A stretch of 21,855 bases of DNA from Oligoflexia bacterium. GTDB taxonomy: Bacteria > Bdellovibrionota > UBA1018. The DNA lies in NCBI GenBank assembly GCA_043732485.1, contig JAYTHP010000242.1, positions 1 to 21,855 on the forward strand, in the 5' to 3' direction. Every line of letters begins with the position of its first letter. Position 1 is the first letter of the stretch. Below are positions 8,114-10,096 of the stretch, piece after piece. A program made the position numbers and the translations under genes. The notes beneath the pieces are model-generated. The model made no database searches, was not told where the DNA came from, and saw only the letters and a list, made by a program, of their open reading frames with translations.

Positions 8114-10096
8114 ATGCGCCAAAACCCCCTGCTTTTACCGCTCCTGACAACTAAGCTCACTGTTGCTGTGCTTCTCACTTGTTCTTTACCTGCGCTGTTA
8201 CTCGCGCCTCTACACGTACACTTACCCCTCGCACAGGCCATGCCGCCCTGCTCAGACTCAGGCACCGTCCCGCGACACGCCGCATCACAGGCCTTATCTT
8301 TAACGCAAACCCAAGCCAGGAAGACAAAAGAGTGCACCGCCCCCACGCTCATGAGCTTAAGTGAGAACGCACGCCGGGAAATTGAAGCCAAGCTCGATCA
8401 TCGCTCCTTTGTTCGCTGGGCTTGCTGCTCCAAGGACTGCCTGCAACTGCTCACAGGCTCAGCCGAAGCGATCAGCGCCAGGCGGTGCAACCGCCGCGAG
8501 GACAAGCTAGCAGACGTTCCGCAGTTGACTTACCAGCAGTTTTTGCAACGGAACAATCGCTCAAGCTTCAAAAAAATTCCCTACCTCTCCAATGCCCTGC
8601 GCGTTAAGTTTCCTGACTTTTTGGCGATGCTCCGCTTTCTGAACACTGCCGATGCGCAAGACTTTAATCAACTCTCAATCAGCTTTTTTTGGACGAGCGC
8701 GACCTGGCACGAGGACTACTGGGAACAATTGCTGCGGCTACAACCTACCACCGAGCTCAAAATGGACTTAACCTGGGCGCAAATGGCCGATACAGGGGCC
8801 AGAGCACTTGCCAAGCTACTCGGGCATCGCAAAAACCCACTGAAGGCGGTCAACTTATGGCATAATGCCCTGACTGAGCAGGGGGTAAGCTTGCTAGCTG
8901 AGGCGTTACGCTCACCCTACAATCAGTTGCACTCCTTAGACTTAGGCGCTAATCCTATCGGCAAGGAAGGCGCTAGAGCCCTTACCGCAGCAATGCAATC
9001 GCCGCACAATCGGCTCACTGCTTTGCATCTTGCAGCCAATCACCTCGGCGATGAGGGTGCGGTCCTGCTTGCCGACGCTCTACAAGACCGCAACACGCAG
9101 CTCACTGAACTCACACTCTGGGGAAACGGTATTTCAGAGCAAGGAGCCCTAGCGCTTGCCGTTGCGCTCCGCCATCCGACGCATAGCAGGCTTACCTACT
9201 TGAACTTGACTACCAACCCGCTGGGAGCGCAAGGAGTCGGCGCACTGGCAGCCTCCTTGCAAAGCCCCCACAATAGAATCCGCTCCTTAAATTTAGAAAA
9301 CACCGGCATGGGCGTGCAAGGCGCCCTAGCCTTAAGCGAAGCACTGCAATCACCTCACAACTCGCTTCGTGTCTTGAATCTCAGCGTTAATCGCATCGAA
9401 AATGCCGGTGCTCTCGCGCTTGCCGAGGGACTTACCTCGCCGCACAACCAGCTGATCAGCTTGGTGCTCAGCAGCAGCGGGATCGAGCCAAAAGGGATCC
9501 TTGCCCTTGCAGCAAGCCTTCAAGCAGGGCACTGCAGGCTTACGTGCTTAAATTTAACTAACAACCGGGTCGAGGATGCAGGAGCCCTGGCGCTTGCCGA
9601 GGCCCTCCACTCTCCCCATAGCCTACTCTCAGCGCTCCATTTAGGCTATTGTGAGGTGGCAGACGCTGGGCTCACTCAGCTTGCTCTTTGCCTTGAGCGC
9701 CCCCACAATTGCCTACGCTTTTTAGACCTTTCCCACAACCACTTTAGCGATGCGGGTATCAAGGCACTTGCCAAAGCGCTGCGATCCCCCCGCCATCAGC
9801 TCACTGCGCTCGTGCTGACCAACAATGCCCTAGGATCAACCCGCATTGCGATGCTTGCCGCTAGCCTCAAGACTCCCCAGAGCACGCTTGCTTGCCTCAA
9901 TCTCTCACACAATCCCGTCGGCGGGAGGGGTGTTGCCGCCATCATCCGTGCGCTGCAGCAAAACTCCCACAGTCGTTTAACCAGCCTCGACTTAAGCCAC
10001 ACCAGCCCAGCACTTGCCCACTGGGCTGAGGAACTGAGGGCTGCCCTACCCGCAGCCTGCGAATTGCTTATGAGCAATGATCGGGCGCGGCGGTAA
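8114..10096 (+). CDS. Signal peptide + F-box-like motif + 29-residue RI-like leucine-rich-repeat protein (candidate effector)
   Basis: Hydrophobic N-terminus ending AQA; LMSLSENARREIEAKLDHRSFVRWACCSKDCLQL is F-box-like; ~14-15 repeats of LxxLxLxxNxIxxxGAxALAxALxSPHNx. Confidence 0.85.
   Translation: MRQNPLLLPLLTTKLTVAVLLTCSLPALLLAPLHVHLPLAQAMPPCSDSGTVPRHAASQALSLTQTQARKTKECTAPTLMSLSENARREIEAKLDHRSFVRWACCSKDCLQLLTGSAEAISARRCNRREDKLADVPQLTYQQFLQRNNRSSFKKIPYLSNALRVKFPDFLAMLRFLNTADAQDFNQLSISFFWTSATWHEDYWEQLLRLQPTTELKMDLTWAQMADTGARALAKLLGHRKNPLKAVNLWHNALTEQGVSLLAEALRSPYNQLHSLDLGANPIGKEGARALTAAMQSPHNRLTALHLAANHLGDEGAVLLADALQDRNTQLTELTLWGNGISEQGALALAVALRHPTHSRLTYLNLTTNPLGAQGVGALAASLQSPHNRIRSLNLENTGMGVQGALALSEALQSPHNSLRVLNLSVNRIENAGALALAEGLTSPHNQLISLVLSSSGIEPKGILALAASLQAGHCRLTCLNLTNNRVEDAGALALAEALHSPHSLLSALHLGYCEVADAGLTQLALCLERPHNCLRFLDLSHNHFSDAGIKALAKALRSPRHQLTALVLTNNALGSTRIAMLAASLKTPQSTLACLNLSHNPVGGRGVAAIIRALQQNSHSRLTSLDLSHTSPALAHWAEELRAALPAACELLMSNDRARR

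Follow-up and report, generated by a model that had tools for sequence, protein, structure and literature searches.

A leader-bearing protein with a worn F-box-like segment and leucine-rich repeats from a Bdellovibrionota-like bacterium, and the expanded family to which it belongs

The gene at 8114–10096 and its surroundings

The window, i.e. the whole stretch of 21,855 nt analysed here, contains on its plus strand an intact gene (8114..10096) encoding a 660-aa protein with a leader, an F-box-like segment and leucine-rich repeats (LRRs). The LRRs recognised in the initial annotation were borne out by Pfam LRR_6 (E 7e-38), LRR families being the only Pfam families found in the protein, and its AlphaFold2 model has a pLDDT of 93. 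A predicted Sec (SPase I) signal peptide (8114..8239, aa 1–42), which is long, has a weak n-region and ends in A-Q-A, is followed by an Ala/Ser/Thr/Gln-rich linker (8240..8347, aa 43–78), whose length varies among the paralogs, and by a worn F-box-like three-helix domain (8348..8455, aa 79–114, with S83 for P and R87 for L), delineated by models, alignment and family profile. Alignment of the family members and the models then define a family-specific conserved region of ~100 aa (R124, 'YxSNAL' and F184) plus one irregular repeat (8456..8839), which by the model would lengthen the LRR sheet and cap it. The rest of the gene, also on the plus strand, consists of 13 ribonuclease inhibitor (RI)-like LRRs (8840..9973, aa 243–620) and a last partial repeat with a C-terminal cap (9974..10096; PAACELL, family consensus near PxGCxxxF), the latter identified by comparison with paralogs.

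The repeats had been described as nearly uniform with a length of 29 aa, and the periodicity agrees: starting at aa 243, 11 of the 12 intervals between the 13 units are 29 aa and one is 30 aa. The GAxALA motif ascribed to them stands as the column consensus, but occurs exactly in only 3 of the 13 repeats. In the repeat alignment, core positions are fixed and concave-face positions variable, the pattern expected of a binding surface. The best structural match of the full model was ribonuclease inhibitor (Foldseek E 1e-25, TM 0.87 by target), with the LRR structure of RipG4 (9j7j) at rank 20 (E 2e-16), and by repeat count and model the protein has the 28–29-residue repeats and horseshoe shape of RI-like LRRs. 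ESM Atlas matches at 0.89–0.92 include eukaryotic 'F-box domain-containing' LRR clusters; since they have fewer than 170 features in common with the protein, they were taken as leads only. Searches with the N-terminal part gave no PDB sequence match below E 0.5 (N-terminal profile) and zero matches among 796 candidates in a word-indexed homologue search (aa 40–235).

Downstream on the plus strand lies a broken tandem paralog (10396..12554), in which leader, F-box region and LRRs are recognisable but the reading frame is interrupted by stops at 10588, 10633, 10666, 11014 and 11512 and shifts near 11570–11600. Upstream, repeat and frame analysis revealed a remnant (7539..7889, plus strand) whose LRRs are of the type seen in the intact gene; it is interrupted by a stop at 7728 and lacks the F-box part. 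Just upstream of this remnant is a multi-copy element (7097–7390) that also occurs in contigs of other organisms; its broken translation looks like the DDE region at the C-terminus of an IS630-type transposase, and a 54-aa piece of it had no Pfam match. The minus strand encodes, amid housekeeping genes, a protein with two PBECR2 nuclease-like stretches identified by Pfam (12756–13829) and, at the contig end, a fragment of another LRR gene (21440–21855) adjoining tRNA-Gly (21171–21247). Rfam detected two tRNAs and nothing else, and the numbers from promoter and terminator scans were at chance level.

The GlpX protein encoded in the window has its best matches (73–77%) in records labelled Bacteriovoracaceae, Bdellovibrionota and Bdellovibrionales, and homologues of the 660-aa protein occur in a genome (G069) labelled Bdellovibrionia. 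The organism is Bdellovibrionota-like. No 16S gene is present in the assembly, and five named GlpX neighbours had no LRR_6 match. Sediment metagenomes are the best holders of the window sequence, pieces of which were also found in glacier runs; the listed runs matching it include no RNA datasets.

The F-box-like segment, the leader and the export route

An F-box-like segment had been proposed at about aa 79–113, with LS replacing the conserved LP, and both observations held. Three helices are predicted within aa 79–114, at about aa 84–93, 96–103 and 107–114 (AlphaFold2, two models with mean pLDDT 93 and 89), a family profile from which this protein was left out gives the segment 36.7 bits (E 1.5e-13), and S83 follows L82 where 19 of 30 aligned members have Pro. 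R87, at a position occupied by Leu in 24 of the 30, is a second departure; the other F-box core positions (L79, L82, I90, L94 and L113) are kept. The F-box profile check turned out negative: the Pfam F-box models gave no match to the 660-aa protein at E<=0.1, nor again at E<=1, so that the PF00646 and PF12937 cut-offs were missed. Among the 30 aligned members, taken from the source genome and related genomes, PF00646 matches 12 and PF12937 9 (E<=1; best 1.5e-8), and the PF00646 cut-off is passed by 7 of 10 members in G069 and by the paralog at C141:37131 of the source genome (hereafter G000).

When the N-terminal 175 aa were compared with 48,161 chains using VIA-align, F-box proteins, as judged by entry title, made up 10 of the best 50 rows, with Z scores of 4.2–5.3, which are below the tool's trust level of 8. 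They include Cdc4 (Z 5.3, rmsd 1.7 over 50 aa), TIR1, COI1, FBXL17, D3, KDM2A, beta-TrCP, cyclin F and Fbs2; the best row for the F-box-like segment is Legionella Lpg1670 (Z 6.4), the title of which is not that of an F-box protein. Foldseek with the 175-aa model returned nothing at E<=0.001. Since PF00646 recognises 12 of the 30 members and the segment scores highly on a profile lacking this protein, the sequence comparisons indicate that aa 79–114 is homologous to F-boxes, but worn. Skp1 binding by this copy appears doubtful because two conserved F-box positions differ; recruitment of Skp1/Cul1 would be more likely for the paralogs keeping LP, such as C141:36894 and C233:7518 of G000 and C35 of G019, and for this copy we regard it as nearly an even call that tilts towards no. 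According to PMC3386239, Skp2 loses Skp1 binding when LP is mutated, whereas full-length GogB retains it.

The long hydrophobic leader ending in AQA was likewise recovered: aa 1–42 end in LAQA, and the best 12-residue window (aa 19–30) has a hydropathy of 2.35 with zero charged residues, compared with 1.50 in the repeat region. The signal peptide is a prediction from hydropathy; an h-region precedes the AQA, the n-region is weakly basic, and the leaders of relatives are of the same type and more clear-cut. Upstream hydropathy of at least 1.5 was found in 23 of 23 source-genome members versus 63% of 1274 other genes, and 2.0 was reached by 14 of the 23 versus 39% (rank test p 8e-4), an enrichment that is modest because start codons were picked crudely, in a simple test with a high background. 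Among 16 F-box proteins of relatives, a subset chosen by availability of fetched loci, 14 had a hydropathy of at least 2.0 and 15 a small-x-Ala motif behind the hydrophobic stretch; in G016 and G019, the F-box begins 5–10 aa past the predicted cleavage site. The predicted mature proteins often start with Met right after A-x-A, as at 8240 in the window and in L270, L271 and L277 of G038, L107 and L112 of G001 and L108 of G069; by eye, this holds for 6 of 6 LRR proteins in G038, and a crude test found no genome-wide enrichment in G000 (11/635 sites, ratio 1.02). Such a Met could be the original start of a gene to which a leader was fused, or could imitate the N-terminus of a host protein.

A survey of secretion systems, which the initial annotation had proposed, identified a type II secretion system (T2SS) with GspC, D, E, F, G and N above cut-off in a single operon of G000 (2.58 Mb, 53.6% GC, 89% complete), and no injectisome was found in this genome. 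Of its four secretins, one is GspD, one PilQ and two are of Tad type, with none of the SctC type, and the only FHIPEP is flagellar; across 15 genomes, FHIPEP is single in 13, split in one and absent in one. VipB and the phage-type contractile sheath were found in 0 of 15 genomes and VirB4 in 0 of 6, with positive controls detected, and Dot/Icm IcmL in 0 of 5, with no positive control detected either. Two Tad systems, a flagellum and type IVa pili are encoded in G000 as well. Searches for ATP/ADP translocase, in which no positive control was detected, gave no full-length match in G000 and six partial C-terminal matches in the 75 family genomes, none of these in the clade described below. Since GspD is present in 70 of the 75 family genomes, T2SS is ancestral and available, but no marker of host association. 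T2SS does not cross a host membrane, and export by this route would therefore require bacterial access to the host cytosol. Membership in the GALA/RipG group, whose repeat we take to be 24 aa, was rejected on the 29-aa period and on the finding of flagellar FHIPEP only and no SctC-type secretin in a genome of 89% completeness.

The family in the source genome, its distribution and the RBR-like proteins

A profile built from the F-box and the following region of 18 own-genome copies gave 37 matches in G000, which merge to 35 loci; 12 of the 37 contain internal stops. LRR proteins form the largest paralog cluster of the genome, with 25 members versus 20 ABC ATPases (1517 ORFs of at least 150 aa). 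Four family members with 28-aa repeats form a tandem array at C40:9337–17953. With its 35 loci, tandem copies and broken copies, the family shows the birth-and-death evolution seen in effector families. That the 660-codon frame of the gene studied here is intact despite only ~37% identity to its tandem neighbour points to long-term selection. Runs X1 and X2, which are probably the source samples, yielded contigs identical to 7308–13500 of the window, the stops of the paralog at 10396–12554 having the same letters. In a contig of run X4 (depth 3), 9 of 414 bases differ over 8529–8942, with 4 of the 8 listed changes non-synonymous; X4 pieces over other parts of the window have 0–1 differences per 175–251 bases. 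These differences may weakly hint at fast change. Contamination was rejected because contigs C242, C176 and C219 fit the tetranucleotide profile of the genome (r 0.96–0.98, median 0.97) and the genes are intron-free amid bacterial genes.

The 18-row profile matches 4 of 75 family genomes, and a wider profile, to which LRRs contribute in part, matches 9 of 74 other family genomes and 0 of 41 in the order's other families. LRR_6 was detected in 8 of the 75, all within one RpoB branch of 12 genomes (67 without match), and PF00646 in 13 (E<=0.01). The 12 F-box- or LRR-positive genomes make up one side of this branch (SH-aLRT 94), requiring 1 change versus 9.6 with shuffled labels, in a quick tree of 29 genomes (27 of the 75 plus 2 outgroups; a thirtieth lacked RpoB) in which positives had been included on purpose; the F-box-positive G004, G029 and G050 lie outside the sample, and G058, off the branch, has one match below cut-off. 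LRR_6 matches are most numerous in G000, G016 and G038, whose genomes measure 1.9–2.6 Mb and whose RpoB branches are long (0.20, 0.32 and 0.51; median 0.13). All six genomes with the highest ankyrin counts belong to the clade, but G016 and G038 have none, and 52 of the 75 genomes have some. In G038 (1.9 Mb), which has no F-box and no ankyrin match and the longest RpoB branch of the family tree, proteins with a signal peptide and 24-aa LRRs (L270, L271, L277) have undergone a very large expansion. Repeats in relatives are 24–28 aa long by eye, so that the 29-aa length, initially put forward as a distinguishing feature, is not a family trait.

Besides LRRs, C-terminal partners of the F-box include an FGE-sulfatase-like domain, a helical non-LRR domain and a further domain. 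Proteins in which a signal peptide and F-box precede other C-terminal domains were seen at L275:1023–2105 (G025), L019 (G000 C96:31534–34023) and L108 (G069). Joined to unrelated domains, the F-box would be a module rather than an LRR cap. A profile search of 1.84 billion representatives gave 30 matches, mostly the proteins of these genomes themselves; among the 25 inspected or traced to own-genome paralogs, most of them nameless, none was recognisably chlamydial. Matches P0014, P0028 and P0030 were dropped as repeat or LRR-only artefacts, and P0032 matched mainly via its F-box.

Five further leader-bearing proteins of G000 end in a RING-IBR-RING module that aligns over its full length to HOIL-1 and ARIH2 (E 1e-7 to 5e-7). 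They are encoded on contig C176 at 6299–8566 (L286), 9003–10628 (L300) and 13255–15282 (L298) and on contig C219 at 2305–4269 (L287) and 4482–6374 (L299). IBR is above the Pfam cut-off in 2 of the five, and all five keep the G-C motif of RING2, whose Cys is presumably the catalytic one. Three more partial loci were observed on C191, C160 and C153. An RBR-like profile matched 8 of 116 genomes, seven in the clade and one outside by a weak, partial, stop-containing match; homologues thus occur in six clade genomes other than G000, several being fused to ankyrin repeats. RBR-like proteins played no part in defining the F-box/LRR clade. Since RBR ligases need eukaryotic ubiquitin and E2, these proteins may be read as an independent sign of a eukaryotic partner, and they are candidate RBR E3 ligases, which would be the first from bacteria. 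G000 further encodes SET-domain, ankyrin, AAA and TPR proteins with leaders (C102, C25:3803–5074, C200, C132, C27, C116, C194 and C225), the leaders being judged by a crude hydropathy test or by eye; several belong to small paralog clusters.

Possible role and comparison with known systems

We consider it reasonably probable that, after export through Sec and T2SS, the protein serves as a substrate adaptor for the SCF ubiquitin ligase of a eukaryotic host, which is probably a protist. Built, as sequence and model show, of a leader, a three-helix F-box-like domain and 13 RI-type repeats, it would be cleaved after AQA, exported by Sec and then by T2SS, from a bacterium residing in, or with access to, the host cytosol. 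As F-box biology would have it, the F-box would then bind Skp1/Cul1 and the variable concave LRR face a host protein, which would become ubiquitinated, the family itself turning over by birth and death. The initial proposal of a different export route and eukaryotic targeting stands at the family level, where leader, F-box and LRR co-occur across the subclade, no injection system was found and eukaryote-type ubiquitin proteins are present, but it does not carry over to this copy, the F-box of which is among the worn ones. The 660-aa protein is not a GALA protein and misses the strict Pfam F-box test, yet most likely works like an F-box effector at the family level. The GC content of 53.6%, the retained flagella, type IV pili and Tad systems and the sediment metagenomes as best holders are points against the host reading.

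The worn segment also admits a protein that is exported to a eukaryotic host and no longer recruits Skp1, the LRR horseshoe alone serving as binder, inhibitor or decoy, as in ribonuclease inhibitor or NLR-type LRRs. We consider this unlikely, in view of the three helices, the five kept core positions and the score on the family profile. Another reading takes its start from Sec leaders, which alone reach the periplasm only, from the retained motility, pili and Tad systems and from the ATP/ADP translocase not being found: the family might act in the periplasm of the bacterium, on its surface or against bacterial prey, with the F-box-like helices as an N-terminal cap, a relic of eukaryotic gene transfer. 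Its probability appears low, because the F-box behaves as a module on unrelated C-terminal domains (LRR, non-LRR and FGE-sulfatase-like), the RBR-like ligases track the same clade, and 67 of the 75 family genomes lack LRR_6.

Just as improbable, in our judgement, is that this copy has kept its open frame but not its function, left behind in a family that is decaying because a host association is being lost or because duplication was driven by drift. Both neighbouring copies are broken, 12 of the 37 family matches contain stops, half of the eight listed X4 differences change an amino acid (weak, given 414 nt at depth 3), and a non-adaptive expansion has been proposed for chlamydial F-box families (PMC4209131). 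The frame, however, is intact over 660 codons, the repeats are regular and both caps are present, at ~37% identity to the neighbour.

Behind the single gene, the larger point is a gene-family expansion in Bdellovibrionota, which are described as predators of bacteria (PMC13200544). The chances seem to us slightly to favour a shift of one subclade from bacterial prey to eukaryotic hosts, handling host ubiquitin via a needle-free Sec/T2SS arsenal of expanded F-box-LRR adaptors and of what would be the first RBR E3 ligases from bacteria. If so, the clade, with its F-box, LRR, ankyrin and RBR-type expansions, would indicate that parasitism of eukaryotes, or symbiosis with them, arose independently in Bdellovibrionota, and it pinpoints the genomes where such an association could be sought. 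It would also be a second lineage, after Dependentiae, whose host-directed proteins seem to exit by Sec and T2SS alone. Interest centres on the lineage and on the companion RBR-like ligases, and the SCF and RBR claims suit ordinary binding and ubiquitination assays. The RBR-like proteins touch an explicit gap, bacterial RBR counterparts being not yet identified according to a 2026 review (PMC13720258). Among the literature matches listed, from a body of literature that leaves out most subscription journals, none dealt with F-box, LRR or RBR effectors of Bdellovibrionota; the main texts of PMC12644861 and of a symbiont catalogue (10.1101/2025.05.29.656868) do not mention Bdellovibrio, although their supplements may list these genomes, and the main text of PMC11909080 contains none of the secretion terms.

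Among known systems, Neochlamydia NEX1a (PMC4209131) likewise has an F-box, a conserved linker of unknown fold and C-terminal LRRs, and likewise belongs to a large lineage-specific expansion with birth and death; NEX1, however, has type III secretion signals, whereas here there is a Sec-type leader, no injectisome was found and the linker is ~100 aa. Ralstonia GALA/RipG, reviewed together with Legionella F-box effectors in PMC13720258, shares the F-box and LRRs with a GAxALA-like helix, but a plant pathogen delivers these by type III secretion and their repeats are 24 aa long, in contrast to the 29-aa RI-type repeats and Sec-type leader of the present protein; 24-mers of Ralstonia are mentioned in PMC2216083. 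Protochlamydia LGR proteins (PMC2216083) are also bacterial RI-like LRR proteins in a protist symbiont, but have 28-residue repeats on very large proteins, and the same text, as far as accessible, does not describe a leader plus F-box architecture. As here, the Dependentiae member Babela massiliensis (PMC4378268) has eukaryote-type repeat proteins with signal peptides, which are present on 79 of 126 ankyrin proteins, and ubiquitin-directed proteins, and no secretion system other than T2SS was detected in it; Chromulinavorax (PMC6561590) is similar. In Babela, however, it is the ankyrin proteins that have expanded and a single F-box protein is present, whereas the present F-box-LRR expansions are found in another phylum, in a motile cell in which ATP/ADP translocase was not found. 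Eukaryotic FBXL proteins (Skp2, TIR1, COI1 and FBXL17) have the same order of F-box and LRR solenoid, with weak structural matches over 136–148 aa, but the protein described here is bacterial and has an export leader and RI-type repeats. The combination, called unusual at first, has precedents in Neochlamydia (PMC4209131), Ralstonia GALA and Babela (PMC4378268) and is a variant of these in joining a Sec-type leader to F-box and LRRs.
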